NCBI GenBank assembly: GCA_039961775.1
Contig: JABRVZ010000003.1
Coordinates: 83,272-147,271, forward strand
Source: Chloroflexota bacterium
GTDB lineage: Bacteria; Chloroflexota; Anaerolineae; Anaerolineales; Villigracilaceae
Length of the DNA: 64,000 nucleotides
Direction of reading: 5' to 3'
A program made the translations under genes and the position numbers. Each line of letters starts with the position of its first letter. The first letter of the stretch is position 1. The notes beneath the pieces are model-generated. The model searched no databases. It was not told the origin of the DNA and was given only the letters and a program-made list of their open reading frames with translations. Shown here one piece after another: positions 28,618-57,970 of the stretch.

Positions 28618-28671
28618 ATTTTGATTCTACCATTTCACCTCTGCGGATTCCCCTGCTGTATAATTGCTTCG

Positions 28672-31293: not shown

Positions 31294-31303
31294 GGAATTT
31301 GCC

Positions 31304-33630: not shown

Positions 33631-33659
33631 CAGACCTCCGGCTGGAAGCCGGAGGTCTG
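33631..33659. terminator. Hairpin between convergent genes (probable terminator)
   Basis: CAGACCTCCGGCT / AGCCGGAGGTCTG, 13-bp perfect stem. Confidence 0.7.
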
Positions 33660-33662
33660 GGT

Positions 33663-34604
33663 TTAATGCTTGTAAAAGTCTGTGGGGAATTCGGGCGGTT
33701 GCAGCCAGGAAAGAAGTCCCCTGGCGTAAAGCGGTCGGTTGACCGGCTTCTCGAACCAGACCAGCAACAGGCTGGAACTCAATCCGGCTGTTCCTATCCA
33801 TTGCCAGGAGGTGAGCGTTTCGCCGAGCAAAAGGTGGCTGAACGTGATGGCGACCAAAAGTTCGGCAAGACCGAGCAGGGCAGTTTGCATCCCGCCGATG
33901 TTCTTGACGCCCAAAAACAGCAGGAGCCGCGAGCCAAAGGTGACCGCTGTCAGCCCCAGCACGGGCATCCATTGAGGATCGGCAGGAGGGGGCGGGCTGG
34001 CGATGAAATAGGCAGGAACGACGATGGCGCTCATCGCCAGCAGGGTGTACACGGTCACGGTGGGGGCGGGAACGTCGTACAACACCCGCTGATTGACCGG
34101 TAAATGCAGGGCGTAGAGCGCGGCAGAAATCAGCATAAAAATTACGCCGGTCAGGTTGATACCTCCCGAGTCGACGCGGGTCAGCAGAAGCGCCGAAAAA
34201 CCTGCGATAACGATGCGAATGACGGTCAGGCGGGAGGGCGGTTGTCCGTCCAGTTGCAGCCAGAACGCCACGAACAAGGGGTAAAGGGCATAAAGCATTT
34301 GCGCCACGCTGGCGTTCAATTTACTCAACCCCACATAGTAGAAAATCGAACCAATGCCGTTCAATGCCCCAGCCAGAAGACACCCATACAGCCCCGCCGG
34401 GTAGATATACAAATACTGCCGGCGGAAGATGAGCATAATCAATACAAGCAGCGCCGCCGCTATGCTTGTGCGAAGCGCCACCACCGCATAGGGTGAGAAC
34501 TGTCCCTCTCCCATTGCCGCTTTGCCAAACACGGGAGCCATGCCAATGAGAGCGGCTGAAATCAGCGCGGCGCTGATACCCTGGGAGCGTTTTTTTTTCG
34601 ACAA
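33663..34604 (-). CDS. DMT/EamA-family transporter
   Basis: About 10 TM in two repeats; YYVGLSKLNASVA...YPLFVA; LAELLVAITFSHLLLGE. Confidence 0.88.
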   Translation of the reverse strand: MSKKKRSQGISAALISAALIGMAPVFGKAAMGEGQFSPYAVVALRTSIAAALLVLIMLIFRRQYLYIYPAGLYGCLLAGALNGIGSIFYYVGLSKLNASVAQMLYALYPLFVAFWLQLDGQPPSRLTVIRIVIAGFSALLLTRVDSGGINLTGVIFMLISAALYALHLPVNQRVLYDVPAPTVTVYTLLAMSAIVVPAYFIASPPPPADPQWMPVLGLTAVTFGSRLLLFLGVKNIGGMQTALLGLAELLVAITFSHLLLGETLTSWQWIGTAGLSSSLLLVWFEKPVNRPLYARGLLSWLQPPEFPTDFYKH

Positions 34605-34745: not shown

Positions 34746-36422
34746 TCACTTGATCAAGGCGCGGACTTCTTCGAGAAATTCGTCGTTCAGAAAATCACCC
34801 TTGAGCATCAGGGACTGGATTTGCCCCTGCAGGCGGCTTTTCTCGTCCACAGTCAGTTCCTTGGCGGTGGCGACGATAACGGGGATGTTGGCTGTCTCCG
34901 GCTGACTGCGCAGTATATCCATGACGGTGAAGCCGTCCATTTCGGGCATCATCAAGTCGAGAATGAGAAGATCGGGGCGTTCGCGGTTGACCAGTTCGAT
35001 GGTTTCGCGCCCGTTGACGGCTTCGAAGATTTCAAAATCACCCTGCGACTGCAAAATTCGGCGGATGAGGCGGCGCGCCTCGGCGGTGTCATCTGCCACC
35101 ACCACGCGCGGGAAGCGGTTCGGCGTCACATTGTTGAGGGCGGAGAGCAGCCCCTCTTGCGGGGTCTCCGCTTCTACCTGTTTATGGCGCAGGTCAATAT
35201 CGCGTGTCCAACCTTCGCCGAACAGATATTGCTCGGCGGGCATGGTGTGACCGGTGCAATTCACCACTACTACATCATCCGGCTTGATTATGCCGGCGCG
35301 CACCAGTTTGAAAAGCCCGGCAAAGGCAGTCGCAGAGGCGGGTTCAGCGGAGATGCCCTCCATCTTTGCCAGCACGTGCATCGCGCGAAAGGATTCTTCA
35401 TCCGAAACGCTCTCGAAGACCCCGCCAGTTTCATTGACCTGTTTGCGCAGCATGACGTAGGTGCGCCCAGGGTCGCCGGTTGCCAGCGTTTCGATGCGCG
35501 TTTTGGGCGAGCGCACCGGCTCGGCTTTTTCGAGCCCTTTGCGCCAACTCTCCACCATCGGCGCACAGCCATCCACCTGAATTGGGGCGATGGCAGGGAT
35601 GCGGTCAATCAGCCCCAGCGCCTTCAACTCACGGAAGCCCTTGTACACGCCGAGCGGTCCCAGCCCTCCGCTGATGGATTGCACATACCAGTCGGGCGTG
35701 CGCCATTTCGGACGGTCTTCTGTGGACTCTGGCGGAGCGCCGTTTTGCAGGGTCAACTGTTCGGCAATTTCGAACGCCAGCGTTTTCATTGCCTCCACCG
35801 CTGTGACCGTGCGTGCGCCCATGTCCTGATACAAACCACGCTGGCGGGCAAACTCTGCCGCCATGATTTTCGCCTCATCGTAGGAGCCGGTGATTTTGAC
35901 CACCTGACTGCCATACAGGGCGATCTCGCGCATCTTGACCCCCGGAACGAGGCTGGTGACGAACGCCCAAAGTTTGATCCCCGCCCGAGCCGCATACGCC
36001 GACAGCGAGATAGCGACATTGCCTGTGGAGGCGGCAACCATTTCAGTGATGCCCGCTTCCTTGAGCGCGGCAATCGTCAGCGCCGCCTGCCGGTCCTTGA
36101 AGGAGGAGGTGGGTCCCTGGCGCTCGTCCTTGATGTAGAGATTGTTCAGCCCCAGCATCATTCCCAGATTGACGGCTTTGATGAGCGGCGTGCCGCCCTC
36201 GCCAAGCCGCAGGCTGGGATTGGGGTTGTGAATGGGCAGGAGTTCCTTGTAACGCCACAAATCGAACTCACGGTTTTTCAGTTGTGACGGAAAGGTTTTT
36301 GCCACCTCCGCCATGTCGTATTCGGCTTCGCGCCACTGACTGGAGCAATTGGGGCATTGCATGGAACTGGGCGTGAAGGGAGCGGCATGCCCGCAATCGA
36401 GACAACGAATGACAAATGACAT
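34746..36422 (-). CDS. Threonine-synthase-like PLP enzyme (N-terminal Zn ribbon) fused to a C-terminal receiver domain
   Basis: CLDC...CPNC, LGEGGTPL, SFKDR (PLP Lys), ASTGN, EPASA. C-terminal VVADD...LILDLMMPEMDG...TAK...KG. Confidence 0.88.
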   Translation of the reverse strand: MSFVIRCLDCGHAAPFTPSSMQCPNCSSQWREAEYDMAEVAKTFPSQLKNREFDLWRYKELLPIHNPNPSLRLGEGGTPLIKAVNLGMMLGLNNLYIKDERQGPTSSFKDRQAALTIAALKEAGITEMVAASTGNVAISLSAYAARAGIKLWAFVTSLVPGVKMREIALYGSQVVKITGSYDEAKIMAAEFARQRGLYQDMGARTVTAVEAMKTLAFEIAEQLTLQNGAPPESTEDRPKWRTPDWYVQSISGGLGPLGVYKGFRELKALGLIDRIPAIAPIQVDGCAPMVESWRKGLEKAEPVRSPKTRIETLATGDPGRTYVMLRKQVNETGGVFESVSDEESFRAMHVLAKMEGISAEPASATAFAGLFKLVRAGIIKPDDVVVVNCTGHTMPAEQYLFGEGWTRDIDLRHKQVEAETPQEGLLSALNNVTPNRFPRVVVADDTAEARRLIRRILQSQGDFEIFEAVNGRETIELVNRERPDLLILDLMMPEMDGFTVMDILRSQPETANIPVIVATAKELTVDEKSRLQGQIQSLMLKGDFLNDEFLEEVRALIK

Positions 36423-36497
36423 TTGCTGATTCTTTCTTTTTGCCGCCCCAGAACTATACCAGGCGGCAAACAGTCTTTAGAATATTGTTGGGACGGC

Positions 36498-39400
36498 TTA
36501 ACCGCCAATTCGTTTGAGTGCGTTTTCAATGCTGGCAATCAAATCGTTTTCGGTGAGCGATCCCTTGGCAATGAGCCTTTTGCCGTACTCGGCAAGTTGT
36601 TTGTGCTGTTCGTTGGTGAGCCCGCCGCCGCTGACCACCAGTACCGGTATCTCGCGGAGCGCCGGTTCTTCCATCATTTTTTCGAGAATCATGAAGCCAT
36701 TCATCTCCGGCATGAAGATGTCAAGAATGACGGCGTCTGGCGGATTGGTGTTGAGGATTTCCCAGCCGCGGCGTCCGCCTTCGGCAAGAACTGGTTGATA
36801 TTTGCCGTGTTCGGTCAGGATTTTTTCGATGAGGCGTAAGTCGTTGGGGTCGTCATCAACGACCAGCACGCGGCGGATTTTGTCGTTTTTGTCGAGGCGT
36901 TCCAGCGCATGGACAAGGTCTTCTTCGAGAATGGGTTTGACCAGGTAGTCTGCCGCGCCGAGGGTGAAGCCCTTGTCGGTTTGTTCGACGATGGAACAGA
37001 TGATGATGGGCACGTCTCGCGTGGCAGGATCAGATTTGAGGTCGGTCAGAACCGACCAGCCATCCACGTTGGGCATCATGATGTCGAGGGTCACGGCAAA
37101 GGGGTTGATTTCCTTCACTTGTTCCTTTGCCCTGGCAGGTTCGGTCAGAGCGACGACGTGGTATCCCTGCGGCGTGAGGTAGCGTTCGTAGAGACTGATG
37201 ACCTGCGGGTCGTCGTCAATGGCAAGCACAATTTTTTTGCCCGCCGGAATTTCCCCGGCTGGCTGGCGGAAGAGCGGCATGGTGAACCAGAAGGTGGAGC
37301 CTTTGCCCTCCTCACTTTCGACGCCGATGCGCCCCCCATGGAGTTGAACGAGGTTGGCGCAAATGGAGAGACCCAGTCCCGAGCCGCCCGTCTTGCGGGT
37401 GGCGGAGCCATCCACCTGCGAGAACGCCTTGAATAGTTTTTCCTGACCTTCCGACGATATGCCGGGACCGGTGTCGATCACTTTGATGAGCGCCTCGAAT
37501 TTTCCGTTTGGCGCTTTTTGCACGGAGGTCTCGACGGTGATGAAGCCCTCGTCGGTGAATTTGGCGGCGTTGGAAATCAGGTTGAGCAAAATCTGACGCA
37601 CACGCATCGTGTCGCCGCGGACAGTGGGCATTTCCGGCGGAACCTTTTCGATGAGTTGGATGGGCTTTTCCTTGACAAGTCCTTTCGCCGTGGAGAAGAC
37701 GCTGTGAATCATCTCGGCGAGGTGAACTTCCTCGAAGTTGAGTTCCATCTTGCCGGCTTCGATGCGTGCCAGGTCGAGGATGTCGTTGATGAGTCCGAGC
37801 AGGTGCTGACCCGAATTGTAGATGGCGGTGAGGTCCTGCTGCTGCATGTCGGTGATGGGACCATCTATGCCCTTCAGGATGACGCGCGAGAAGCCGATGA
37901 TGGAGTTCAGCGGGGTGCGCAGTTCGTGGCTCATGTTGGCGAGGAACTGACTCTTGAGTTTGTCCACTTCCTGGAGGTTCTTGATGAGTTCCTGCGATTC
38001 AAGGTACAGGGTGGCGTTGTTGATGGCAACGGCAACCTGGTCTGCCAGAGATTGAAGGATGGAAAGCGCATCGGTGGTGAAGGCGTGCGGCTGGGTAGAT
38101 TGAATGTCAATCACGCCGAGCGCCTTGCCGCTGACCTTGAGCGGAATGGCGACCTCTGATTGCGTGTCGAGCAGGAGCGGGTTGGGCTGGTACAGGCGGT
38201 CGGTGGCGGTGTCGTTGACAATGACGGTGTCACCTTTTTCCGCCGCTTTGCCTACGATGGTTTGCGAGCCGACGGGGACCCTGTATCGTTGGGCTTTCAT
38301 TTTTTCGCCGGCGCCGCCTGTCGCTTCGCGCAGGATGACATGGTAGCCGTCTTCGTCCATCTGATAGATGGCGGCGAAGTAGAAGCCTAGGCGGTCGCTG
38401 ACCAGATTGACGGTCTGTGCGAAGATCGTGTTGAGGTCGAGCGTGGAGGTGACGAGCCGCCCGATTTCGGCGGAAGCGGCAAGGTAGATGTTGCGCCGCT
38501 CCAGGGCTTCTCGGGCTTCCAGGCGTTCCAGCGCGGCGGATGTTTGAGCGGCGATTGCCTCGAGGATTTCTTCGTGCTTTTCTGTGAGGCGTATGGCAGG
38601 GTTATAGGTCTGAACCGCCATGACGCCTCGTACCGCGCCGCGGCTTTTCATCGGCACCCCAAGCCAGTCCACGCTGGGAGCGCCGTCGGAGACAATTTCG
38701 CCGCTGGCTTCGAGGTCGGCAAAGATTTCCGGAGTGACGCGCAGGCGTTTACCGGAACGGATGACATAAGAGGTGAGCCCGCGCCCCAGTTTGCGAGGCG
38801 CCCAGTCGTCGTCGTATTCATCCGCGTGATAAGGGAAGGTAATCTGTTGAATCTCCGGGTCGTAGAGCGCCACGAAGAAGTTTTTGGCTGGCAGAAGTGG
38901 TTGAACGGATTCGTGTACGGTGCGGAGTAATTCTTCTGCTGATTGAGCCGTCAGAGCGCTCTCGGTGATGTGCGTGATGGCGTCCTGGGTGAGTTCGTTG
39001 ATCTTACGGTCGGTGATGTCGTGCGCCACCCAAAAGACCTCGGTTTCGCTCAACTTGGAGACGTTGGCGTCGAACCAGAAGCGGCTGCCTTGAATTTCCA
39101 ACGGATATTCGATGCGCACAATTTCATCGCTATTCAACGCATCGAGGATGGCTTTCATAACCGGTTCGCAAAGGTCCGGCGGCAGGACATCGCGGATGTT
39201 TTTTCCCACCATTTCGTCGGGGGGGCGAACCAGCAGGGAGGGGTTGGTGGGTGCGATGCGGACGTAGGTGCCATCCTTGTCGTACACGATAATGACGTCA
39301 TTCATGGCGGCGAACAACGCCCGCAGTTCTGCCTCGGAGCGCTTGGTCTCCTGGAATAGACGGGCGTTTTCGAGCGCCAGCGTCAGTTGGTCGGTCACCT

Positions 39401-39716
39401 GACGGGCGAGCAGTTGGTCTTCCTCCGTCCAGACACGCTGATTGGTTTCATCAACAACCTGCAGGGTCGCCCAGGTATCGGTGCTCAGTTTGAAATCCAG
39501 CGCCAGGGCGGTTTCCGTGAGGGGTGCCGCTTTGGCGCGGCGAACAATGCCGGGGTGTTTTGCTGCCGGCAGTTCCTTGCCCGATACCGCTGCAGGCGGC
39601 TGGGACGCGCCGGCAGGAGCAACCGCCTGAGGTTCGACGCTCGGTTCTTCGTGCTTGATGTCTTCGAATAGTTTGTCAAGCCGCCTGTCGAGCGGTTTCT
39701 TCTTTGGCATATTCAA
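36498..39716 (-). CDS. Hybrid histidine kinase: basic peptide / half-GAF / PAS / GAF / GAF / HisKA / HATPase / REC / REC
   Basis: ANMSHELRTPLN, NLISNAAKFT, DTGPGI, GGSGLGL. Two receivers (TLDIMMP; ILDIFMP). Start may be at 39710. Confidence 0.93.
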   Translation of the reverse strand: MNMPKKKPLDRRLDKLFEDIKHEEPSVEPQAVAPAGASQPPAAVSGKELPAAKHPGIVRRAKAAPLTETALALDFKLSTDTWATLQVVDETNQRVWTEEDQLLARQVTDQLTLALENARLFQETKRSEAELRALFAAMNDVIIVYDKDGTYVRIAPTNPSLLVRPPDEMVGKNIRDVLPPDLCEPVMKAILDALNSDEIVRIEYPLEIQGSRFWFDANVSKLSETEVFWVAHDITDRKINELTQDAITHITESALTAQSAEELLRTVHESVQPLLPAKNFFVALYDPEIQQITFPYHADEYDDDWAPRKLGRGLTSYVIRSGKRLRVTPEIFADLEASGEIVSDGAPSVDWLGVPMKSRGAVRGVMAVQTYNPAIRLTEKHEEILEAIAAQTSAALERLEAREALERRNIYLAASAEIGRLVTSTLDLNTIFAQTVNLVSDRLGFYFAAIYQMDEDGYHVILREATGGAGEKMKAQRYRVPVGSQTIVGKAAEKGDTVIVNDTATDRLYQPNPLLLDTQSEVAIPLKVSGKALGVIDIQSTQPHAFTTDALSILQSLADQVAVAINNATLYLESQELIKNLQEVDKLKSQFLANMSHELRTPLNSIIGFSRVILKGIDGPITDMQQQDLTAIYNSGQHLLGLINDILDLARIEAGKMELNFEEVHLAEMIHSVFSTAKGLVKEKPIQLIEKVPPEMPTVRGDTMRVRQILLNLISNAAKFTDEGFITVETSVQKAPNGKFEALIKVIDTGPGISSEGQEKLFKAFSQVDGSATRKTGGSGLGLSICANLVQLHGGRIGVESEEGKGSTFWFTMPLFRQPAGEIPAGKKIVLAIDDDPQVISLYERYLTPQGYHVVALTEPARAKEQVKEINPFAVTLDIMMPNVDGWSVLTDLKSDPATRDVPIIICSIVEQTDKGFTLGAADYLVKPILEEDLVHALERLDKNDKIRRVLVVDDDPNDLRLIEKILTEHGKYQPVLAEGGRRGWEILNTNPPDAVILDIFMPEMNGFMILEKMMEEPALREIPVLVVSGGGLTNEQHKQLAEYGKRLIAKGSLTENDLIASIENALKRIGG

Positions 39717-40461
39717 TCAACTCCTGAGCGAGGACACGATATTGCTGCGAGCCGCGGCTGGTGGGTTTGTAGTGAATGATGGGCACGCCGGCGATCGGGC
39801 TTTCCCTGAGTTTGGTGTCAATTTCGATGACGGTGGTAAAAACGCCCTGCCCAAAGGTGGCTTGCAGCTGCTCGAAGATATTGCGGTGTGTGCGGTTGCG
39901 GCGGTCGAGGAGGGTGACCAGAATACGGTAGGCAAGCGCAGGATTGACTTCCTGACGGATGCGGCGGATGGTCCCCATCATGTTGCGCAGCGCGTAGGCG
40001 GAGAAGTATTCTGCCTGGGTGGGGATGATGAGCAGGTTTGCAGCGGCGAGCGCGTTGAGGGTGATCGCTCCGAGGGCGGGCGGGCAGTCGAACAGGATGT
40101 AGTCGTAGGGAAGCGGTTCAGCCGCCAGTGCGTCGCGGAGTGTGGTCAGGTAATGATTTCGCATGGGCAGGAATTGCTCCGCATTTTCGATGCGAAAACT
40201 GGACGGCACCAGGGAAAGGTTACGAATTTCGGTGGCGCGGACGGCGGTTTTAAGGGGCGCGCCTTCAATCAGCACGTTTGCCGAGGTGATGCTTGTCTCG
40301 TCGGTTTCCAAACCAAGGGCGAGCGAAAGGTTCGCCTGCGGGTCGAGGTCCACCAGCAGGACGCGGTAATTCAGTTCGGCAAGCGCCGCGCCCAGCGAAA
40401 GCGTGGAGGTGGTTTTGGCGACGCCTCCCTTTTCGTTCGACATTGCGATTGCGTATGCCAT
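39676..40461 (-). CDS. ParA/Soj-family ATPase (orphan, no adjacent parB)
   Basis: KGGVAKTT deviant Walker A, DLDPQAN, DCPP, LIIPTQAEY. Confidence 0.92.
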   Translation of the reverse strand: MAYAIAMSNEKGGVAKTTSTLSLGAALAELNYRVLLVDLDPQANLSLALGLETDETSITSANVLIEGAPLKTAVRATEIRNLSLVPSSFRIENAEQFLPMRNHYLTTLRDALAAEPLPYDYILFDCPPALGAITLNALAAANLLIIPTQAEYFSAYALRNMMGTIRRIRQEVNPALAYRILVTLLDRRNRTHRNIFEQLQATFGQGVFTTVIEIDTKLRESPIAGVPIIHYKPTSRGSQQYRVLAQELIEYAKEETARQAA

Positions 40462-40462
40462 C

Positions 40463-42976
40463 TTACTTGTCCTTTCCGTCCGAAGCCTTGGGCAGGATTT
40501 CCACACGGGTGGCGCCAAGCGCCTGACGCAGTTCCTGCAGGGCGGTTTCGATCATGGCTTGCGGGTCGTTATGGTTGCGTATCTTGCCGGTGATTTCCGA
40601 GACCAGCCGTTCGCGTTCGGCGCGGCGGGTTGTTTCTTCGAACAGGCGGGCGTTTTCTGCGGAGAGCGCCACGCGTTCCGCCACCGCCTGAATGAGGTCT
40701 TTTTCGTCCTCACCCCATTGGGATGCGGATGCAGATTGGACGACCAGCCTGCCGATGACTTCGCCGCGCAGTTCGATCGGGACGACAATCGAGGTTGTTT
40801 CAGCCTTCTCAGCCTTTTTCTTGTCTGGAAGCGGCATGTCCAACTTGATGGGCTCGGTGAGGGGCACTGCCCCCATGGTATTGTAGCGGTAGCCGAGCAG
40901 TTTTTGGCTGTGCGGCAAACGTTTCCATGCTTCGCGAGTGGACTGGCGCATGAGTGTTTGCAGTTCTTCAAGCGCGCGGTTGGAAGCATCGAACAGACGC
41001 GCATTTTCGATGGCGAGGCTTACCTGTTCGGCGAGCAGACTGAGCGTTTGCACGTCTTCTTCGGTGAAGGCGCCGACTTCCGTGCTTTGCACGTCGAGCG
41101 CGCCGATGACTTTGCCGCCGCTGAAGAGGGGCAGCGCCATTTCGGAGTGGGTGTCGGGGAGGTCGGGGTTGTTGAAGTAGACGGCATCCACCCCGACGTC
41201 GAGGGCGATGCGCGGTTTTCCGCTTCCCGTCACGCTGCCGACGATGCCTTGTTCGCCTACTTTCAGGCGGTGTCGCCTTGCCAGCATTCTCTGACCGCCT
41301 TCGCTGTTAGCCGCGGCAAGTACGGCGTATTCGTTGTTTTCATCGAGCAGGAAGATGCCGACATGGTAAAAGCCGTACTTTTCGCTGATGACCGACGTCA
41401 CGTGCGGGAGGAGTTCCTTGGGGTCGCGGATGGAAGCGATGGATTGGGCGACCTGCGCCATTGCCTCGAATTGTGCCGCGCGGCGGTGAAGTTGGGCGTT
41501 TGCCGCTTCCAGCTCACGTCCGCGTTGTTCGACTTCCCGGGTGCGTTCGGCGACGCGCATTTCGAGCGAGTCGATGGATGTCTTGAGTTCCGCCGCCATG
41601 GCGTTGAGGGTGGAGGCAAGGGTGCCGATTTCGTTTTGCTCGGTGATGGCTGCGCGCGCTTCCAGGTTACCTTTTGCCATTTCTTCGGCGGTACGGGTGA
41701 GCGAAAGCAGAGGGGCTATCAGGCTGTTGCTGAAATTGCGGGTGGCGAGCAGGGTGAGCCCGAAGATGCCCAGAACGACGAAGAGACTGATGCCCAGCGC
41801 ATTGCGGCTTTCGCGTTCGAGTTGTTGGCGGGCTTCCAGCGCTTTGGCGAGCATTTCATTGACCGGTACGATGATTGCCAGGCTGAAGCCCGCGCGTTGT
41901 ACCGGGCGGTAAACGACGAACCTCCTGGTGCCGTTCAGGCTGAGTTCTGTGAAGCCGCTGTTGCCGGCGGTCATTTCGGTGAGTATGGGCGCGAGTTCTC
42001 TGGCGGTGCTTCCCAGGTTGGTGGCAGTGAGTTTGCCTCCCAGCGGTAACATGTTCGGGTTGATGTTCAGATCGGCGTAGCCCGCATTGGGCATGGCAAT
42101 CAGCCGCCCGTCGCGGTCGAGCAGGAATGCGTAGCCGCTCTCTGCCACGCTGATATTACCGACGATTTCCGAGATTTTAGTTAGTTGAATATCCTGCGCA
42201 ACGACGCCAGCCAGTCTGCCTGCCGCATCGTAGACCGGCGCGCTGTTGGTGATGACAATACCGTTGAGCGCGGCGTCCAGATACGGCTCTGACCAGACCG
42301 CCCCTTTGCCAGGATTTGCTTCCGGCGCCGCCGCCGTGTACCAGGGTCTGCCGGTGACGTCGAAATCGGGAGGGACGATGGCGGCAAGGTCTATGTTGGG
42401 GTAATAGAGCGTGTACCCCGAAGAACCGCCAAAGTACACGGCGATGACATCGGGATTGGCTTCAAGGATGGAGGGGGCAATCAAGTCCATGTGGCGGATG
42501 ATGTTCAAATCCGCTTTCATTGAGTCGGAGAGGTCGGCTGCGGCAGGGATAAATACGGAGCCGATTTCTGTGTTGGGGTTATCCCAACTGCCCTTGTCGT
42601 TGCGGGAAAGCGATGTGCCGGCGTCCCAAAATGCGCCGGTTTCGAAAGACTGCCGGTTCAGCAGAAGGTTCTGGTCATATTCTCTCAACGAGAGGATGCC
42701 TGCCTCCAGCGACGCGAAAAAGTTCGATAAAGTTTCTGTCTTTCGGTCGGCTGTAATGGCAAGCAGGGTCTCGGCTTCATTACGTGTGGCGGCGTCGAGA
42801 CGTGAAATCAGGGCGGAGTTGGTCTGCCGCGTGCGGATGAATACGAAGACGCCCATGATGGCAAGCGCCAGAAACACGATGGCAATACTGCCGCGAACCA
42901 GCCTGTTGCGAATGGACGGCTGAGGCGCTGAATAGGATTGCGGAGAACCGCCGGTGGGTTTCACTGCATCTGTCAT
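40463..42976 (-). CDS. TM-dCache-TM-HAMP-GAF receptor with split-GAF tail, no catalytic domain
   Basis: FDVTGRPWY..WSEPY dCache, HAMP EIGTLA, conserved GAF, PIELRGEVIG...ENARL...RERLVSEI tail. ATGA overlap with the upstream gene. Confidence 0.85.
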   Translation of the reverse strand: MTDAVKPTGGSPQSYSAPQPSIRNRLVRGSIAIVFLALAIMGVFVFIRTRQTNSALISRLDAATRNEAETLLAITADRKTETLSNFFASLEAGILSLREYDQNLLLNRQSFETGAFWDAGTSLSRNDKGSWDNPNTEIGSVFIPAAADLSDSMKADLNIIRHMDLIAPSILEANPDVIAVYFGGSSGYTLYYPNIDLAAIVPPDFDVTGRPWYTAAAPEANPGKGAVWSEPYLDAALNGIVITNSAPVYDAAGRLAGVVAQDIQLTKISEIVGNISVAESGYAFLLDRDGRLIAMPNAGYADLNINPNMLPLGGKLTATNLGSTARELAPILTEMTAGNSGFTELSLNGTRRFVVYRPVQRAGFSLAIIVPVNEMLAKALEARQQLERESRNALGISLFVVLGIFGLTLLATRNFSNSLIAPLLSLTRTAEEMAKGNLEARAAITEQNEIGTLASTLNAMAAELKTSIDSLEMRVAERTREVEQRGRELEAANAQLHRRAAQFEAMAQVAQSIASIRDPKELLPHVTSVISEKYGFYHVGIFLLDENNEYAVLAAANSEGGQRMLARRHRLKVGEQGIVGSVTGSGKPRIALDVGVDAVYFNNPDLPDTHSEMALPLFSGGKVIGALDVQSTEVGAFTEEDVQTLSLLAEQVSLAIENARLFDASNRALEELQTLMRQSTREAWKRLPHSQKLLGYRYNTMGAVPLTEPIKLDMPLPDKKKAEKAETTSIVVPIELRGEVIGRLVVQSASASQWGEDEKDLIQAVAERVALSAENARLFEETTRRAERERLVSEITGKIRNHNDPQAMIETALQELRQALGATRVEILPKASDGKDK

Positions 42977-45834
42977 GCGATACTTTCTCCGTCTGAGTCG
43001 CCGAATTGGATGATGACTTCTGAGCCAGGCAGGGCGCGTCCCAGTTCTTCGACGGCGGTCTGCAGCACGTTGCGCATGTTGATGGATGCGCCGATTTTGG
43101 CGGAGACTTCGCCGATCTTTGCCTCTTTGGCGGCGCGGCGCTGTGATTCCAGCAGGAGGCGGGCGTTGTCGAGGGCGAGCGCCAGGCGGTCTGAAACGGC
43201 TTGAGCAAGGTTGATTTCGTCCTGATTCCAGCGGTGGTTGGGCAGAGGGGCTTTGATGTTGAGCACACCGATGGTTTGTCCGCGCAGTTTGACCGGGACG
43301 GCAATGGCTGGCTGGGAGAGGGCGTCTCCGCTGTTCACCACTACCACGCGTCCCTGTTTGAGCGCTTTGCGGATTTCCTCCGACATGACTGGTTTGGTGA
43401 GTCTCTGCCCGCCGGTGGCGGTTTGTTGGTAACCAATCCTTTCTGCCTGGCGGATAAATGCGCTCCATTCCCGACTTTGAATCTGGGCGTACAATGACTC
43501 GGCTTCTTCACGCGCCTGGCGCATTTGCCCAAAGAGACGGGCGTTTTCAATGGCAATGGCAACCTGGTCGGCGAGGATGCTGAGGGTTTGGGCGTCATTT
43601 TCGGTGAAGGCGCCGGGCTTGTCACTTTGTACATCCAGAACGCCGATGGTGTCGCCTCGATAGTTGAGGGGCAGCGCCATTTCGGAGTGGGTGTTGGGGA
43701 GGTCGGGGTTGTTGAAGAAAACGGCATCCGCTCCCACGTCGAGGGCGATGCGGGGTTGTCCGGTCTGGATGACGGTGCCTACCAGTCCTGTGCCGATTTC
43801 CAGGCGGTGCCCGCGGGCGAGCATCTTCTTTCCGCCTTCGCTGTTGGCGGCTTGTAGGATGGCAAAGCGGCGGGTCTCATCCACAAAGAAGATGCCGACA
43901 TGATAGAAGTCGAAGCGTTCGCTGATGAGGCGGGTAACGAGAGGCAGCAACACGTCGAGCCGTTGTTCGCTGGCGATGAGGCGGGAGATTTCGCTAATGG
44001 ATTGAAGGTCGTGCGCGCGCTTTTCACTGACCAGTACGGCGTTTTTCAGGTCCAGCGTTCGTTCGCTTACACGCTGTTCGAGCCCGGCAATCAGGTCGCG
44101 CAGTTGGGATGTCATGTAGTTGAAGGCGACTGCCAGCGCGCCGGTTTCGTCGCCGCTTTCGATGTTTGCCCGGATATTGGTATCGCCTTTGGCGATTTTT
44201 TCTGCCACCTGTTTGAGCTGGGTGATGGGAGCCGCAAGCACCTGGGCAAAGCCAGTTGCCGCCGCCGTTGCTGCCAGTGCAATCAGAATTGCAAACAAGG
44301 TGATGTTGCGCGTTTGAATTTGAATTGGCTGGAGCGCCTCGGTTTGATTTTGGATGGAGACGGCATGCCAGTTGAGATCTGTGATGAGGGTGCTCTTTCC
44401 ATTGAGTTGAACAACATCGGTGACGCGGGCGTGGCTTGCCAGGATGGGAATTTCATCGTGGAAGGTTTCATGGTAGGGTTCGGTGGATTCCAGGAGTTCG
44501 TTGATGTTCAGCGACGCAACGGGTTTTAGTATGGTTTCGTAGGCGCCGTCTTCCTTGAGCCGCAAGGAAATTTCCTGCCCGTTGGGGAGGTAGATGTCGG
44601 TGTGGCCGGTTTGACCGAATAAACCGGATGTCAGGGTGTTGGTGAAGATGGATATATCCAGGGTGGTGCGTAGAACGCCGATAGGCTCTGTATATCCCGG
44701 GGGCTGAATGCGAATTGCCATGATAACGCCAATTGCATTGATGCTTTCGTCGTATTCCGGTTGACCGATGTAGCCGCCTTGCTCGTAGGCAGTGCGCCAC
44801 CATGTTTCGTCTGCCTGATAGTAATCGGATGTGCTGTTCGTGATGGCGATGTTCACTCCCTGGCGGTTGGTGAGGATGATTTCGATGTGCTGGGGAAATT
44901 TTTCCTGGAATTGGCGGAGTTCCTGGCTGAGAGGGGCGTTCAGGATGTCACTCACGAGAGGGTCGGCGTAGTTGCGGGCGGCATTGGCAGAGCGCCATTG
45001 TTGGTCGCGGCGGACGATTTCTTCTTCGCTCAGGGGTTTCTGCGCGCTGGAAGATGAAGCAGTCTGAATGACAAGCGGATTCAACGCCAGCGTTTGAAGG
45101 AGGTCTCTCTCGTGCCCGAGGGTTTGACCGACTTCCAGTGCCTTTGAATTTGCCAGCGTGGAAAGTTGTCCGCTGATGATGCGCACCAACGTGGCGCGCA
45201 GGGTGTTGCTTGTGAGGGCTGCGCCAAGTCCAACCGTACCCAGCACGAGAGCGGCAAAAACGACGATCAATTTGGTGCGCAGGGTGTAATTACGGAATTG
45301 CCGTGCAGTGACATGCCCGAACAACAGAATGACCGTTAGCAATATGCCGGGCAGGAAGAAACGAATGATGGCTGGCGGAGGCAGGCGGAAGGCAGGCGGG
45401 AAGATTTCGACCATCATGGCGGCGATTCCACTGACGGTTCCCCAAATGACCGCCTGGGTGACCTGCCTGGCCGGCAGTGTTTGCCCCGCGATGACAGCGG
45501 TGAGAGCCAGGATGGAGATGCCAATGAGCAGCCCGATGCCTTGGATCAGCGCCACAGCAGCGATGAACGTGATTTGCAAAGCAATCAGGATGAGCCAAAT
45601 GGCAGAGGCGAGACGCCGCCGTCGCAACAGGAAGAGGCTGACAAGCAATGCCAGCGCCAGAAGCCAGATGTCGGCGCTCCAGGCATACAGTTGCCAGTTG
45701 CCCAATTGCAGCCCCAGCGCGAGATAGACGGATGCGGCGAGGATGGAGGCCGGCAAGCCAATCAGGATAATGCGCAGGGCGTTGCGTTCTTCGTTTGTAA
45801 AGTTGGAGTCGAAGCGGAATGGATTACTAATCAT
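42973..45834 (-). CDS. Multi-TM + Cache + HAMP + GAF receptor with split-GAF tail
   Basis: N-terminal hydrophobic helices, SDYYQADETWW Cache-type segment, HAMP DETGALA, conserved GAF and tail. Confidence 0.85.
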   Translation of the reverse strand: MISNPFRFDSNFTNEERNALRIILIGLPASILAASVYLALGLQLGNWQLYAWSADIWLLALALLVSLFLLRRRRLASAIWLILIALQITFIAAVALIQGIGLLIGISILALTAVIAGQTLPARQVTQAVIWGTVSGIAAMMVEIFPPAFRLPPPAIIRFFLPGILLTVILLFGHVTARQFRNYTLRTKLIVVFAALVLGTVGLGAALTSNTLRATLVRIISGQLSTLANSKALEVGQTLGHERDLLQTLALNPLVIQTASSSSAQKPLSEEEIVRRDQQWRSANAARNYADPLVSDILNAPLSQELRQFQEKFPQHIEIILTNRQGVNIAITNSTSDYYQADETWWRTAYEQGGYIGQPEYDESINAIGVIMAIRIQPPGYTEPIGVLRTTLDISIFTNTLTSGLFGQTGHTDIYLPNGQEISLRLKEDGAYETILKPVASLNINELLESTEPYHETFHDEIPILASHARVTDVVQLNGKSTLITDLNWHAVSIQNQTEALQPIQIQTRNITLFAILIALAATAAATGFAQVLAAPITQLKQVAEKIAKGDTNIRANIESGDETGALAVAFNYMTSQLRDLIAGLEQRVSERTLDLKNAVLVSEKRAHDLQSISEISRLIASEQRLDVLLPLVTRLISERFDFYHVGIFFVDETRRFAILQAANSEGGKKMLARGHRLEIGTGLVGTVIQTGQPRIALDVGADAVFFNNPDLPNTHSEMALPLNYRGDTIGVLDVQSDKPGAFTENDAQTLSILADQVAIAIENARLFGQMRQAREEAESLYAQIQSREWSAFIRQAERIGYQQTATGGQRLTKPVMSEEIRKALKQGRVVVVNSGDALSQPAIAVPVKLRGQTIGVLNIKAPLPNHRWNQDEINLAQAVSDRLALALDNARLLLESQRRAAKEAKIGEVSAKIGASINMRNVLQTAVEELGRALPGSEVIIQFGDSDGESIA

Positions 45835-47770
45835 TTTGGCTTCCCATCGTGTCCGCATGGAGTTGTACCAGCACTTCGGAGCCGCCCAGGGCGCGGCTGA
45901 GTTCTTCCACGGCGGTGCGCAGGATGGCGTCAATCTGGGTGGTGGCGGTGATTCTGCTGGAGATGTCGGTGGTGATGCGTTCGAGTTCTGCGCGCCGCTG
46001 GGTGGTTTTGAGCAGCAGCGAAGTTTCGAGCGCCAGTGACAGGCGTTCTGCCACGGCTTCGGCAATGTCCACTTCGTCTTCATCCCATTCGTGTTCGCCG
46101 CGGGTGTGGATGTCGAGCACGCCGATTACCTCGCCGCGCAGGCGAATGGGAACGGCAAGCGTGGCGTTTACGCCGCTTTCCGCCACTGTCTGTTTTTCGG
46201 TCAGCGCTTTGCGGTTATGAGCGTTCATCCACGGACGGGAGAGAGGCGCAACTTCATCGCCGGATGCCTTGAAGCCGATTCTTGCGCTGTCGGCTTGCAG
46301 AATGCGCCAGGCGTCCTGCAGGTAGGCGACGGATGTTCTTTGGGCTTTTTCCAGCAGTTCCTGCATGGATTCGAAGGAGCGGGCATTTTGAATTGCCACG
46401 GCAATCTGGTCGGCAAGGGTGGTCAGCACGCGGACGTCTTCCTGCTGGAAGGCGTTGGGCTGGGTGCTTTGTACATCCAGGACGCCGATGGTTTGTCTGC
46501 CGATGATGAGAGGCAGGGCAATTTCGGAGCGAGTTTCGGGGAGGTCGGGATTGTCGAAGTACACGGCATCCGCTCCCACGTCCAGGGCGATGCGGGGAGC
46601 GCCGAGGGCTGAGACGTAGCCAACGATGCCGGTCTGCCCGACCTTGAGCTTGTGTCCGCGCGCGAGCATTCTCTGTCCGCCGGGGCTGTTGGCGGCGCGC
46701 AGGACGGCGTACTCGTTGTTTTCGTCCAGGAGGAAGATGCCCACATGGTAGTATCCCATCCGCTCGCTGATGGCGGTTGTGATGCGCGGAAGCAGGCTTG
46801 GCAGGCTTTCAAGGGAGGTTGCGGCTTTGACGATTTCTGAAATGATTTCGAGCTGACCAGCGCGTTTTTCGAGCGTTTCAACGGTCTGTTGAATTTCTTC
46901 GTTTTGTACGTTCAGGCTGGCGGCTTGACGCCGAAGTTGCTCCTCGTCTGCCTGCTGAACGGCGAGCAGGTCGTTGAAACTTTCGATGACCTGGTTGAGT
47001 TCACGGATGCCGGTGTGCAGTTCCAGCCGTTTGCCTGCTTCCCGAACGCTGGAGGTGGCTTTCGCCAATTCCAACACGGGATTGGCAATTCGTGTGCCTG
47101 CCAGCCAGCCCAGCGCCGCGGCGCCTGCGGCGGACGCCAGGAACAAAAGCACAAAGGTGCGGAAAAACTCCTGTTGTTGCGCCAGGATGTCCTGTGCCAG
47201 AATATCCACGCCGACGATGCCTTCCAATTGCCCGTCGGAGCGGTAGAACGGAGCATAGGCGGTCAGGTAGGTGCCGAATTCATCGGTGTAGAACTCGGTT
47301 TCGACTGCCGGGGCGCGCAAGGTATCGAAGTTTTCAAGCAGGAACCCGCTTGGGCTTTCATAAACCGAGCCAATTTCAACCGGCTGGTACTCTTCGGGCG
47401 GTGCGCCGGGTTCGTGACCGGCGTCCAGGACGAAGTAGATTTCACCCGCTGTATTTTTGCGCATGGTGTACACGTACAGGATTTCCGGGTCGGTGGCGGC
47501 AATGGCGAAGCCTTTGGCTTGCAGTTCCCGGTAGGCGTCGGTGTCCATGTCGGCAGGGGTTTGCAGTTGCGCATGGAGGTCGCCGTTGATTTGCAGGGCG
47601 GCGTTCGCGGCAATGGCTGTCAGTTTGTGCTGCTTTTCGCGGAGCAGGTTATTGCGCGCTTGCGAGTAGGAAAGCGAAATTGTCAGCGCACTGATGAGCA
47701 CACCGGCAATGGCAAAACCAATGGCAAGACGGAAGCGCAGGCTGGTCAGCCGTTCCATTAAGGCTTTCAT
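45827..47770 (-). CDS. TM-single Cache-like-TM-HAMP-GAF receptor with split-GAF tail
   Basis: YVYTMRK..YFVLD...YTDEFGTYLTAYAP...GVD sensor, conserved GAF and tail. ATGA overlap. Confidence 0.85.
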   Translation of the reverse strand: MKALMERLTSLRFRLAIGFAIAGVLISALTISLSYSQARNNLLREKQHKLTAIAANAALQINGDLHAQLQTPADMDTDAYRELQAKGFAIAATDPEILYVYTMRKNTAGEIYFVLDAGHEPGAPPEEYQPVEIGSVYESPSGFLLENFDTLRAPAVETEFYTDEFGTYLTAYAPFYRSDGQLEGIVGVDILAQDILAQQQEFFRTFVLLFLASAAGAAALGWLAGTRIANPVLELAKATSSVREAGKRLELHTGIRELNQVIESFNDLLAVQQADEEQLRRQAASLNVQNEEIQQTVETLEKRAGQLEIISEIVKAATSLESLPSLLPRITTAISERMGYYHVGIFLLDENNEYAVLRAANSPGGQRMLARGHKLKVGQTGIVGYVSALGAPRIALDVGADAVYFDNPDLPETRSEIALPLIIGRQTIGVLDVQSTQPNAFQQEDVRVLTTLADQIAVAIQNARSFESMQELLEKAQRTSVAYLQDAWRILQADSARIGFKASGDEVAPLSRPWMNAHNRKALTEKQTVAESGVNATLAVPIRLRGEVIGVLDIHTRGEHEWDEDEVDIAEAVAERLSLALETSLLLKTTQRRAELERITTDISSRITATTQIDAILRTAVEELSRALGGSEVLVQLHADTMGSQND

Positions 47771-50700
47771 CCTGCCCTCCTTTCCAGCGCTTCGCTTTGC
47801 AGCTGCACGATGACTTCCGTTTCGGGCAGGGCGCGTTTTAATTCGAGCGCCGCCGCTTTCAACAGTTCCTCCATGTCGCTTTGGGCGCTGATTTTGGCGG
47901 AAATTTCTCCGATGGTGTGCTCCTTGGCGGCGCGTTTCTGGCTTTCGGCAAGCAGACGGGCGTTTTCCATGGCAATGGCGGCGCGTTCGAGGATGGCGTT
48001 GACGATGTCCAGTTCGTCCTGGTCCCATTGACGATTGCCCGGCGCGCGCACATCCACCGAACCGATGACCTCTCCGCGCAATTTGATGGGCATGGACAAC
48101 ACTGCGCCTCCCATCCCCGCCTTGAGTTGTTTCGCCGACTGAAGGATTTCCTGCGCCTCCTTGCTGTTTCGCGCATAGAGCAGGGACGCCTTTGCGCCCG
48201 TATGGCGCACGCCAAGCAATTTCTCTCGTTTGGTGAACTGGCTCCAACCGCTGCGCACGAACTGCCTCGAAAGCGACTGCGATTCTGCCAGCGCCTGTCG
48301 GGTTTCCTCGTTTTGTCTCGCGTTTTGGATGGCGATGCTCACCTGGTCGGCGAGGATGGTGAGGATGGCGATGTCTTCGTCGCCGAAGGCGTTCGGCTGG
48401 GTGCTTTGTACGTCGAGCACACCGATGATCATTTCACCCGCCCGCAGGGGCAGGGCAATTTCGGAGCGGGTTTCGGGGAGGTCGGGGTTGTTGAAGAAAA
48501 CGGCATCCGCCCCCGTGTCCAGAGCGATGCGGGGTTTGCCGGTGCCGGCGGCATAGCCGACCAATCCCTTTGCTCCGACTTTCAGCCTGTGTCCGCGGGC
48601 GAGCATGCGCTGTCCGCCGGGGCTATTGGCGGCGCTCAGCACGGCATATTCTCCGTTGCTGTCGAGCAGGAAGATGCCCACGTGGTAGAAGCCAAACTCG
48701 CGGCTGATTGCAACCGTGATTTGTTTGAGCAGACTCTCGAGCTCGAGGTTGGAACTGATGGTGCGGGCGATGTGCGCGATGGATTGGAACTGCCGGGCGC
48801 GCCGCTCGATGTTGGCGTTGGCTTCGAGCAATTGGGCGGTGCGTTCCTCGACGCTTCTTTCCAGACCTTCGAGCGTGCCGCGCAGACGGGCAGTCATGGC
48901 GTTGAATGCCTGCGCCAGTGTGCCGACTTCGTCTTGCGTGCGGATATCCGCTTGTGCGGCCAGGTTGCCCTCCAGAATTTGGTTGGCGGTTTGGGTGAGA
49001 CTCAAGATGGGCGCGGCAAGCAGTTGACCCAGTCCCAGGCTGACCGCCAACGCTCCTGCCAGCAGGATGATGAGAATGACGACGGCGCTGCGCACGGTGC
49101 CCTGTACCTGGGCGGCGATTTCGTTGCGTGTGGCGGCTACCGGTTGTGTCAATTCATCCACAGGCACGATCAACCCAAGGCTGAAACTGCGGTTTGCCAG
49201 CGGAGCGTAGGCAACAAAGTATTTCACGCCATTGGCGCTGGTGGTGATGAGTCCACTCGCGCCGGCAGTTATCCTGAGGGTAATCTGCCGTAACTCAAAA
49301 GGCAGGTTGCCATCGAAGATGGTTTGCTTGGGCTCTTCATTCATTCCCAACACTTCGGGCTGCAAGCCCAGCAGTTCGTATCCCTGCGGCGGCATGGCAA
49401 TGATGTGACCGTCGCTATCCACCAGGAAGGCGTAGCCGCTGGTCCCCACTTTGATTGCGCCGATTTGTTCGGCAATCTTTGCCAGCTGAAAATCTGCCGT
49501 CATCACGCCGATGAACTCATCTTTGAAATACACCGGTGTGGAGACGGAAACCACCAGCCCTCTGCCGGCCGGGTCCTGGCGGGGGAAGGACCAGCGTGCG
49601 CTTCGATCTCTGTTGAAGAGCGGGGTTGCCACACGGAAGGGCGGCTGTGCCGTGCCGTCATAGTTATGCGGCAGGCTTTCGCCCAGTCGAATGTTGGGGT
49701 AGTGAGTGATAATTCCGCGTTTGTCGGTGAAATAGAGCGCTGTAATTTGCGGGTTGTTTTCCAGCACGAACGGCGCAGAAAAATCCAGATATGCCGTCAC
49801 GTTCAATTCACGGATGACATCCTCTGTCAATTCCACGGTCGAGGGGACAAATACGCTGCTGGGCGAGTAGCGGCTGTTGAAGTATTGTCCGTCGCTGTAG
49901 CGGGTGAGCCGCACGGCGGCATCCCAATAGAACCCATTCCCAAGGGTGTTCTTCTGTTCCTGAAGCAGTTCCAACTGGTGGGCAACACCTTCCACCTGGG
50001 CAACCGCTGTATTGAAGGCGCTGTCTGCCCGGCCGGCTTCGTTGGTGATGGTATTGATGAGTTGTTCTTCCGCCAACTGGTTGGCGAGCCGCTCGATGCT
50101 AACCGAAAAGGTGTTGACAAGCCCGGCGGCGCGATTCAGCGCAAAGATCGAAAGCGCCAGCAGCGAAAGGAAACCAGTGGTAAGAATTCCCGCCACGATT
50201 TTCGTGCGGATATTGCCGCTTAACGCCCGCCGCGCAAAATAGGCGGCAGACCCGGCTGCTGCCAGCATCATGATGACTGCGCCAACAATTGGCGCAAAGA
50301 ACTGCGATTGGATACGAAATGCCGGGTCCCAGATTTCGATGGCGGTTGCAAGCAAAAGAGTGGCGGCTGCCAGAAGGATGACGCGGCTCCGCGAACCCGC
50401 CGGGAAAACCCGCCACACGAATAACGCCGTGAAAACCACCACGCTCGCGCCGGCGACCAGGATGGCTCCCCGAATAACCAGCGTCGCCGCCAGCGGGAAG
50501 GCGACCATGCTGAGCGCGTACGTCAACCATGCGCCCGCCAGGTGACGTCCCCGACGCATCAGCGCCAACGCCAGCAGGTTGCCGAGCACCATCAGGCTCA
50601 AAAACGGAATCATGACGCGGTCTGAAAGGTCCAGCGTTCCGCTTTGCAGACGCACAGTAATGAGATCGAACACCAAAAACGCCGCGCCTGCCAGCGCCAG

Positions 50701-50775
50701 CATGCCCGCCAGCAGTGTGCCGACCTGTTTTTGTTTTTCACTCAACATGCTGTCCGTGTCTCGCATTCCGCTCAT
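47767..50775 (-). CDS. Multi-TM + dCache + HAMP + GAF receptor with split-GAF tail
   Basis: N-terminal helices, dCache (VSVSTPVY..GVMTADF; GYAFLVD..G), HAMP DEVGTLA, conserved GAF and tail. Confidence 0.85.
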   Translation of the reverse strand: MSGMRDTDSMLSEKQKQVGTLLAGMLALAGAAFLVFDLITVRLQSGTLDLSDRVMIPFLSLMVLGNLLALALMRRGRHLAGAWLTYALSMVAFPLAATLVIRGAILVAGASVVVFTALFVWRVFPAGSRSRVILLAAATLLLATAIEIWDPAFRIQSQFFAPIVGAVIMMLAAAGSAAYFARRALSGNIRTKIVAGILTTGFLSLLALSIFALNRAAGLVNTFSVSIERLANQLAEEQLINTITNEAGRADSAFNTAVAQVEGVAHQLELLQEQKNTLGNGFYWDAAVRLTRYSDGQYFNSRYSPSSVFVPSTVELTEDVIRELNVTAYLDFSAPFVLENNPQITALYFTDKRGIITHYPNIRLGESLPHNYDGTAQPPFRVATPLFNRDRSARWSFPRQDPAGRGLVVSVSTPVYFKDEFIGVMTADFQLAKIAEQIGAIKVGTSGYAFLVDSDGHIIAMPPQGYELLGLQPEVLGMNEEPKQTIFDGNLPFELRQITLRITAGASGLITTSANGVKYFVAYAPLANRSFSLGLIVPVDELTQPVAATRNEIAAQVQGTVRSAVVILIILLAGALAVSLGLGQLLAAPILSLTQTANQILEGNLAAQADIRTQDEVGTLAQAFNAMTARLRGTLEGLERSVEERTAQLLEANANIERRARQFQSIAHIARTISSNLELESLLKQITVAISREFGFYHVGIFLLDSNGEYAVLSAANSPGGQRMLARGHRLKVGAKGLVGYAAGTGKPRIALDTGADAVFFNNPDLPETRSEIALPLRAGEMIIGVLDVQSTQPNAFGDEDIAILTILADQVSIAIQNARQNEETRQALAESQSLSRQFVRSGWSQFTKREKLLGVRHTGAKASLLYARNSKEAQEILQSAKQLKAGMGGAVLSMPIKLRGEVIGSVDVRAPGNRQWDQDELDIVNAILERAAIAMENARLLAESQKRAAKEHTIGEISAKISAQSDMEELLKAAALELKRALPETEVIVQLQSEALERRAG

Positions 50776-52517: not shown

Positions 52518-52520
52518 GGA

Positions 52521-53906: not shown

Positions 53907-53920
53907 ATTGTCGTTTGCGC

Positions 53921-57966: not shown

Positions 57967-57970
57967 GCGG

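Follow-up and report, generated by a model that had tools for sequence, protein, structure and literature searches.

A Threonine Synthase-Like Enzyme Fused to a Receiver Domain as a Candidate Enzymatic Response Regulator in Chloroflexota

Signaling through a two-component system nearly always terminates in a transcription factor or in one of a few second-messenger or chemotaxis enzymes. The locus described here raises the question of whether such a system can also end in an enzyme of amino acid metabolism. It lies in a 64,000-nucleotide stretch (hereafter, the window) of contig JABRVZ010000003.1 from a Chloroflexota bacterium of the order Anaerolineales (assembly GCA_039961775.1), in which a single gene encodes a threonine synthase (ThrC)-like enzyme of the pyridoxal phosphate (PLP)-dependent type joined to a phosphorylation receiver domain (REC), directly downstream of a hybrid histidine kinase gene. 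The explanation that we favor, with moderate confidence, is that the protein serves as a response regulator with an enzymatic output. Its neighboring kinase would act through Asp489 of the receiver on a PLP enzyme of ThrC lineage with a non-housekeeping substrate, and in the orthologue group of the window, the product would be exported by an EamA-family transporter.

The fused gene is a minus-strand open reading frame (positions 34746 to 36422) with an ATG start, encoding 558 amino acids followed by a stop codon. The plus-strand reading of the same interval was ruled out, its translation being riddled with stops. From the N-terminus, the protein comprises a four-cysteine zinc ribbon, a fold-type II PLP domain, a linker of about 40 residues, and a C-terminal REC. 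Pfam PALP covers residues 72 to 390 (E = 4e-63), and Response_reg covers residues 440 to 540 (E = 1e-18; 68 bits against a gathering score of 30.2). By sequence, the solved structures nearest to residues 56 to 394 are the threonine synthases of Aquifex, Thermus, Mycobacterium, and Bacillus, while those nearest to residues 439 to 557, a segment with the predicted beta-alpha repeat pattern of a receiver, are CheY-like receivers (E = 1e-19). An AlphaFold model built from 33 homologues (mean predicted local distance difference test score (pLDDT) of 75, predicted template modeling score (pTM) of 0.67) contains both folds, joined by a low-confidence linker (pLDDT below 50, residues 393 to 428). When this model was compared with the PDB using Foldseek, the top matches were ThrC from B. 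subtilis, Aquifex, Thermus, and M. tuberculosis (target-normalized template modeling scores of 0.79 to 0.80), followed by the cysteate synthase CapA2, serine dehydratases, TrpB, and IlvA.

Conservation was assessed in an alignment of 44 non-identical fused homologues spanning 46 to 100% identity. The ribbon cysteines C7, C10, C23, and C26 are invariant in all 44, as is K109, which aligns with the Schiff-base lysine K61 of Thermus ThrC; the same ribbon is present in unfused Zn-ribbon ThrC-like proteins. The motifs S132-T-G-N135, S251-G-G-x-G-P-x-G258, E360-P-A, and G391-H-T393 are invariant or nearly so. This pattern of cysteines, K109, and PLP motifs is what would be expected of a functional PLP enzyme maintained by purifying selection. 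The receiver is likewise conserved at D/E444, D445, D489 (within LILDLMMP), T/S519, and K541 (within LMLKG), each kept in 43 or 44 of the 44 sequences, and conservation extends into the linker at W405, D408, P421, G424, L425, A428, and L429. A first-pass annotation of this DNA, made from the letters alone, had proposed a zinc ribbon, a fold-II PLP core, and an intact receiver, and the Pfam, structural, and conservation results all bear this out.

In its fold score, its acidic pair and Asp, Thr, and Lys set, and its adjacent kinase, the receiver portion has what is expected of a response regulator. K541 precedes a glycine where proline is usual. The REC tail carries the motif T-A-K-E-L-T-x-x-E-K-x-R-L ... 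K-G, and the earlier annotation had remarked on its resemblance to the second receiver (REC2) of the neighboring kinase. That resemblance is real, since only one REC in the genome matches better than REC2 (32.5% identity, 76 bits), but it marks no special link between the two proteins, as the best match (39.5% identity) is the terminal REC of another histidine kinase (HK) of HK-REC-REC form on contig C20. For that reason, we regard the "LTxxE...KG" tail as the trait of a REC subtype. Receivers also vary among relatives. The fused lineage P0126 has a degenerate receiver that has lost the conserved lysine and has an altered acidic pair, and a cluster of 12 proteins of about 420 amino acids (P0130), nested in the fused clade, has no receiver at all.

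Gene order ties the fused gene to the kinase. On the minus strand, the window reads: sensor array, ParA/MinD-like ATPase, hybrid kinase, a 75-bp gap, the fused gene, a 141-bp gap, the EamA gene, and a hairpin (Table 1). Between the end of the kinase gene (stop at 36498) and the start codon of the fused gene (36422), a distance of 75 bp, a scan of the minus strand revealed nothing resembling a terminator; the hairpin located there runs into A-rich sequence instead of a T-run, in line with the earlier statement that no U-tract terminator separates the two genes. In relatives, we examined 79 named Anaerolineales loci (71 to 99% identity), restricting counts to loci not cut by a contig end. A hybrid GAF kinase lies directly upstream on the same strand in 74 of 74, and an EamA gene lies directly downstream on the same strand in 75 of 76 (the window's orthologue group). 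ParA is the second upstream gene in 52 of 62. The kinase and the fused gene are separated by a median of about 21 bp, the fused gene and EamA by a median of about 60 bp. A second set of 16 diverse Chloroflexota loci covered six families outside that of the window (f2, f3, f4, f7, f8, and f13), a REC-REC form, Herpetosiphon, and a second fused paralogue (paralogue 2). Every one of the 16 has a GAF histidine kinase directly upstream on the same strand. The gene order thus strongly supports a link between the fused gene and the adjacent kinase.

The diverse loci also bear on how the kinase might reach the receiver. The kinases at the loci of Herpetosiphon and paralogue 2 lack any receiver, and a small stand-alone receiver gene comes after the fused gene there; direct phosphotransfer from kinase to REC is therefore plausible. 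Upstream in the window, the run of GAF, HAMP-GAF, and dCache proteins is presumed to be the input layer, and similar output-less sensor proteins precede the kinase in relatives. Downstream, EamA is retained in families f2, f3, f4, and f13, and the EamA protein of the window has a weak match to TIGR00950, a carboxylate/amino acid/amine transporter model.

What the enzyme acts on is suggested by its substrate loop. The first-pass annotation had claimed that the phosphate-binding loop of ThrC is replaced here, and alignments with Aquifex, Thermus, and the genome's own canonical ThrC agree: the window protein reads DMGARTVTAVEAMKT, while these three read NS(V/I)NP(Y/H)R(I/L)EGQKT. The consensus across the fused family is D-[MR]-G-A-[RK]-x-x-x-x-x-E-x-M-K-T, while canonical ThrC representatives, including the genome's own (L001), retain N-S-x-N-P-x-R-x-E-G-Q-K-T. 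T88, N154, S155, R160, and N188 of Thermus ThrC, reportedly the contacts of the substrate or product phosphate in the work on 1V7C, correspond to V136, G202, A203, A208, and G253 in the fused protein, so that all five positions are substituted. Because the pocket no longer fits the O-phosphohomoserine site, the reaction is probably not housekeeping threonine synthesis, and it is reasonable to infer from these alignments a substrate other than O-phosphohomoserine. Basic residues do persist in the loop, R/K204 being typical of the window's group and R/K209 of the Herpetosiphon and paralogue-2 group, with R201 found in many family members; given these residues, an anionic leaving group may still bind. 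The PLP-phosphate loop differs as well, reading SGGxGPxG where ThrC has GNAGN. It recalls the glycine-rich loop of dehydratases, a likeness that we treat only as a lead. Cyanobacterial ThrC paralogues with deaminase activity have been published (PMC12172450), and on that precedent the fold can shift reaction type.

Family models place the protein close to threonine synthases and outside every threonine synthase model applied. Its best-scoring model is PRK08197 (250.8 bits against a cut-off of 303), TIGR00260 gives 148.7 against 167.1, and four further ThrC models likewise score under their cut-offs. As a candidate threonine synthase, it has the fold-II PLP domain and the SFKDR lysine and falls short of the family cut-off and the phosphate site. 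Identity as a cysteate synthase (TIGR03844) was rejected at 105 bits against a cut-off of 324.9, and the PDB cysteate synthase 9K3C matches by sequence at E = 2e-9 only. Public databases label the fused proteins "threonine synthase" or "pyridoxal-phosphate dependent enzyme".

The genome does not depend on the fused gene for a ThrC. The assembly (4.07 Mb, Anaerolineales, 98.8% complete) holds three further ThrC-like genes, one of them canonical (Table 1), so the objection that the fused gene might be its only threonine synthase falls away. In 26 of 26 sampled genomes of the same family, the fused gene coexists with one or more ThrC homologues that are unfused. Nine of these 26 have no high-scoring (at least 280 bits) short canonical ThrC, carrying only PRK08197- or L003-type homologues; the paralogue serving as the housekeeping threonine synthase may thus vary within the family. 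In the window's own genome, the L003-type gene (422 amino acids; C90:39905-44580) divergently adjoins another GAF histidine kinase (1064 amino acids), which may be chance or a second association between a kinase and a ThrC-like gene.

A quick maximum-likelihood search on the PLP domains separated all fused proteins from the canonical and PRK08197-type ThrCs and from the genome's three paralogues on a branch with 98% support in the Shimodaira-Hasegawa-like approximate likelihood ratio test (SH-aLRT). The fused side of this branch also holds some fragmentary sequences and a single cluster that truly lacks a REC, P0130. As the tree was quick and some of its branches are long, a single origin of the fusion is likely rather than proven.

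Fused proteins of this kind form a family conserved in Chloroflexota. Their PALP and REC architecture recurs in more than 120 database clusters at 86 to 98% identity, nearly all of them from Anaerolineales metagenome bins, and in an exhaustive search of 1.84 billion representatives, the full fusion was found in only a handful of 50%-identity clusters (P0123 to P0128), two of which carry two receivers. Across 401 Chloroflexota genomes, scores were bimodal, with full-length fused matches at 505 bits or more and unfused ThrC-like proteins at 227 bits or less. All 23 genomes sampled from the family of the window contain the fused gene, which also occurs in single genomes of two sister families, in several other families of the class, and in two families outside the class. 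One of the latter is represented by cultured Herpetosiphon, whose protein P0273 is named "threonine synthase [Herpetosiphon giganteus]" in the database. The second fused paralogue (46 to 47% identity) occurs in about nine genomes. A fused-gene copy with 74% identity also lies on DYLS01000027.1 (L128), a contig of a metagenome-assembled genome labeled "Blastopirellula marina"; this is probably a mis-binned or mislabeled Anaerolineales contig and not an occurrence in a planctomycete.

These observations suggest how an enzymatic response regulator of this kind might work. The upstream, presumably co-transcribed GAF histidine kinase would phosphorylate Asp489, and the phosphorylated REC would alter receiver dimerization or docking. 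The conserved linker could relay this change to the dimer state or to the open/closed motion of the PLP domain, and catalysis would be switched in this way. As for the reaction, beta/gamma-elimination or replacement with a related amino acid as substrate is likelier than housekeeping threonine synthesis, and the product would probably leave through the co-operonic EamA transporter in the window's orthologue group.

Several points weigh against this proposal. The REC (residues 436 to 558) is C-terminal to the enzyme domain, which is atypical for response regulators, though N-terminal placement is no strict requirement, and the AlphaFold model, with its disordered linker and its pTM of 0.67, yields no confident contact between the domains. 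The hybrid kinase of the window itself contains two RECs, obscuring the route of phosphotransfer, and an Hpt that could complete a phosphorelay was sought and none found in the operon; the genome's single Hpt is on contig C131, beside other receivers. Whether the fused protein is the output of the system, as first proposed, is uncertain, since the kinase carries receivers itself and the neighboring convergent operon has an OmpR-type regulator with separate kinases. The Anaerolineales loci come from related genomes, and the synteny counts are to that extent non-independent. EamA is absent from the Herpetosiphon, f7, f9, and paralogue-2 loci, and export is therefore not a universal feature of the family. 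Finally, the phosphate-contact roles assigned to the Thermus residues lean on motif conservation, and the conserved basic residues of the loop may mean that a phosphorylated substrate, even O-phosphohomoserine, is still used.

This last point leads to the best-surviving alternative, that the protein is a genuine threonine synthase, a signal-regulated isozyme whose activity on O-phosphohomoserine is tuned by phosphorylation of the REC, with EamA as an RhtA-type threonine/homoserine exporter. The nearest solved structures and top family models are all threonine synthases, as is the public annotation; the catalytic lysine and PLP motifs are intact, and the basic residues kept in the remodeled loop could hold the phosphate. 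The EamA family, moreover, is generally known to include amino acid exporters, in keeping with the weak TIGR00950 match here. We nevertheless consider this alternative unlikely, as all five reported phosphate-contact positions are substituted, every curated ThrC cut-off is missed, the clade stands apart from canonical and PRK08197-type ThrC, and the genome already holds a ThrC of each of these types.

A second alternative reverses the roles of the two domains. The PLP domain might be a ligand sensor comparable to the aminotransferase-like domain in MocR/GabR-type regulators, in which case an amino acid bound as external aldimine would modulate phosphorylation of the protein's own REC, itself a phosphate sink or a branch of the hybrid kinase's relay. 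This would suit a C-terminal REC that is most like the terminal RECs of HK-REC-REC hybrid kinases, a hybrid kinase without an Hpt, and the extra stand-alone REC at the paralogue-2 loci, and a retained lysine alone is no proof of catalysis, as is established for GabR. Invariance here, however, goes beyond the lysine to the entire active-site framework over 46 to 100% identity; the protein has no DNA-binding or other effector domain to transmit a sensed signal, and a co-operonic transporter suits a product better than a sensor. On this balance, we find the sensor role very doubtful. A functionally neutral fusion, in which a constitutive PLP enzyme was joined to a neighboring stand-alone receiver gene with no allosteric coupling, is highly improbable: in its favor are the length and predicted disorder of the linker, the nesting of P0130 without a REC in the fused clade, and the degenerate P0126 REC, but the fusion is retained with an intact REC active site in 23 of 23 sampled family genomes and several Chloroflexota classes, the linker contains conserved motifs, and the kinase neighbor is invariably kept.

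An enzymatic response regulator would have several known parallels, and the new element here is the PLP enzyme as receiver output; enzymatic response regulators and allosteric fold-II PLP enzymes are themselves established. Well-known enzymatic-output response regulators include the methylesterase CheB, the diguanylate cyclases PleD and WspR, and the phosphodiesterase RpfG. Like the fused protein, these join an intact receiver to an enzyme with a kinase gene adjacent, and by analogy the logic would be the same, with phosphorylation controlling catalysis instead of transcription. The fused protein differs in that its output is a PLP amino acid enzyme and its REC is C-terminal and of the "LTxxE...KG" subtype otherwise terminal in hybrid kinases. 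Known allosteric fold-II PLP enzymes include plant ThrC, which is activated by S-adenosylmethionine (SAM; 2C2B), and IlvA, with its C-terminal regulatory domain (1TDJ). Both are among the structural matches and place a ThrC/IlvA-type core under an appended regulatory part, in their case a small-molecule-binding domain and not a phosphorylatable receiver tied to a kinase. A relative, P0203, carries a C-terminal LeuA allosteric domain. In the wider Zn-ribbon ThrC-like superfamily, fusions in P0203, P0206, and P0264 involve LeuA allosteric, PadR DNA-binding, and inositol-monophosphatase domains, and the ThrC-like core seems, from these architectures, to have recruited regulatory or partner modules repeatedly.

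With bacterial ThrCs (for example, those of Thermus thermophilus, 1UIM/1V7C; Aquifex aeolicus, 2ZSJ; and B. subtilis, 6CGQ), the fused protein shares the fold-II PLP domain, the SFKDR lysine, the S-T-G-N loop, and about 30% identity; it differs in its added N-terminal Zn ribbon and C-terminal REC, its replaced phosphate-binding positions, and its SGGxGPxG loop. With the PRK08197-type proteins and cysteate synthase (TIGR03844; CapA2, 9K3C), it shares the zinc ribbon and the length of the catalytic part. PRK08197-type proteins, however, keep a P-Y-R-x-E-G-K-K loop, from which the fused protein departs, in addition to its separate clade and scores below the cut-offs. Searching the literature for fusions of ThrC to a receiver, for response regulators with a PLP output, and for Herpetosiphon brought up no account of a PLP enzyme serving as the output of a receiver. 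In the CqsA/CqsS and LqsA/LqsS/LqsR systems of Vibrio and Legionella, the gene for a PLP enzyme neighbors those for a sensor kinase and a receiver (PMC3376566). The likeness, small-molecule production linked to two-component signaling, is one of analogy and does not imply a signal molecule here; CqsA and LqsA are fold-type I enzymes unfused to a receiver, whereas the window enzyme is fold-type II and fused.

Table 1. Features of the fused gene, its operon, and the other ThrC-like genes of the genome. Positions are those of the window.
Feature	Position	Strand	Basis or remark
Receiver-fused ThrC-like PLP enzyme	34746..36422	-	Open reading frame and translation; Pfam PALP and Response_reg; NCBIfam ThrC cut-offs not reached
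Four-Cys zinc ribbon, residues 7-26 (CLDC...CPNC)	36345..36404	-	All four Cys present in 44/44 fused proteins
Fold-type II PLP domain, residues 72-390	35253..36209	-	Pfam PALP E 4e-63; Foldseek against ThrC structures
Lys109 codon (SFKDR), predicted PLP Schiff-base lysine	36096..36098	-	Codon read directly; aligns with Thermus ThrC K61
Remodeled substrate loop D200-MGARTVTAVEAMK-T214, in place of NSxNPxRxEGxKT	35781..35825	-	Alignments
Inter-domain linker, residues 394-435, with PxEGLLxAL helix conserved just before REC	35118..35243	-	Alignment and AlphaFold
Receiver domain, residues 436-558, "TAKELTxxE...KG" subtype	34749..35117	-	Pfam Response_reg; CheY-like structure matches
Asp489 codon, predicted phospho-acceptor	34956..34958	-	Codon read; D invariant in 44/44 homologues
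Kinase-to-enzyme spacer, 75 bp	36423..36497	-	No terminator-like site
Hybrid histidine kinase PAS-GAF-GAF-HisKA-HATPase-REC-REC, no Hpt	36498..39716	-	Pfam; conserved directly upstream of fused gene
ParA/MinD-like ATPase upstream of kinase	39676..40518	-	Pfam AAA_31/CbiA
About 10 consecutive GAF / HAMP-GAF / dCache-HAMP-GAF sensor proteins without recognizable output domain	40463..63673	-	Pfam
EamA-family (drug/metabolite transporter) membrane protein	33663..34604	-	Pfam EamA, two repeats
Strong terminator-like hairpin closing operon after EamA, 13-bp stem, 9 GC pairs	33631..33659	-	Terminator scan
Canonical short ThrC, window genome (L001)			311 bits on TIGR00260
PRK08197-type Zn-ribbon ThrC, window genome (L002)			595 bits
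Third ThrC-like gene, window genome (L003)			171 bits, barely over TIGR00260 cut-off

The surroundings of the fused gene offer further observations. A convergent plus-strand operon (28285-33621) encoding a GAF kinase, a REC-kinase, and an OmpR-type regulator ends beside the EamA gene and is syntenic in four relatives (L008, L039, L053, and L054); it could be functionally tied to the minus-strand system. The paralogue-2 loci (L049:5000-5380, L050:10924-12552, and L051:7603-9170) carry, in this order, a REC-less GAF-kinase, the PALP-REC gene, a stand-alone REC of about 126 to 140 amino acids, and a PRK08197-type ThrC (575 bits), which places a second ThrC-family enzyme beside the fused one; across the Herpetosiphon and paralogue-2 loci as a whole, three have such a ThrC. 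In two other Chloroflexota families (L044:3558-6144 and L043:4288-5091), Methyltransf_19 SAM-methyltransferase genes stand between the GAF sensors and the kinase, at the place of ParA, and one of these loci has three such genes in tandem.

If the enzymatic response regulator is real, a receiver gating a PLP amino acid enzyme would tie the sensing of the environment to metabolism, or to a metabolite that is secreted, rapidly and at the post-translational level, and the fused enzyme would be a candidate output for the multi-sensor GAF array upstream. A more specific version, which we consider quite unlikely and offer as speculation, is that the kinase, the ThrC-REC protein, and EamA form a signal-controlled synthase and exporter of a diffusible amino acid-derived molecule, autoinducer-like or allelopathic, with the GAF/HAMP/dCache array setting the timing. 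Were this true, it would represent new PLP-based cell-to-cell signaling chemistry in filamentous Chloroflexota, with a synthase switched directly by phosphorylation. Members of the family are found widely in Anaerolineales, an order common in metagenomes from wastewater, groundwater, and sediment, and their mis-annotation as "threonine synthase" skews the reconstruction of metabolism. As cultured Herpetosiphon has a member, the family is approachable by experiment.

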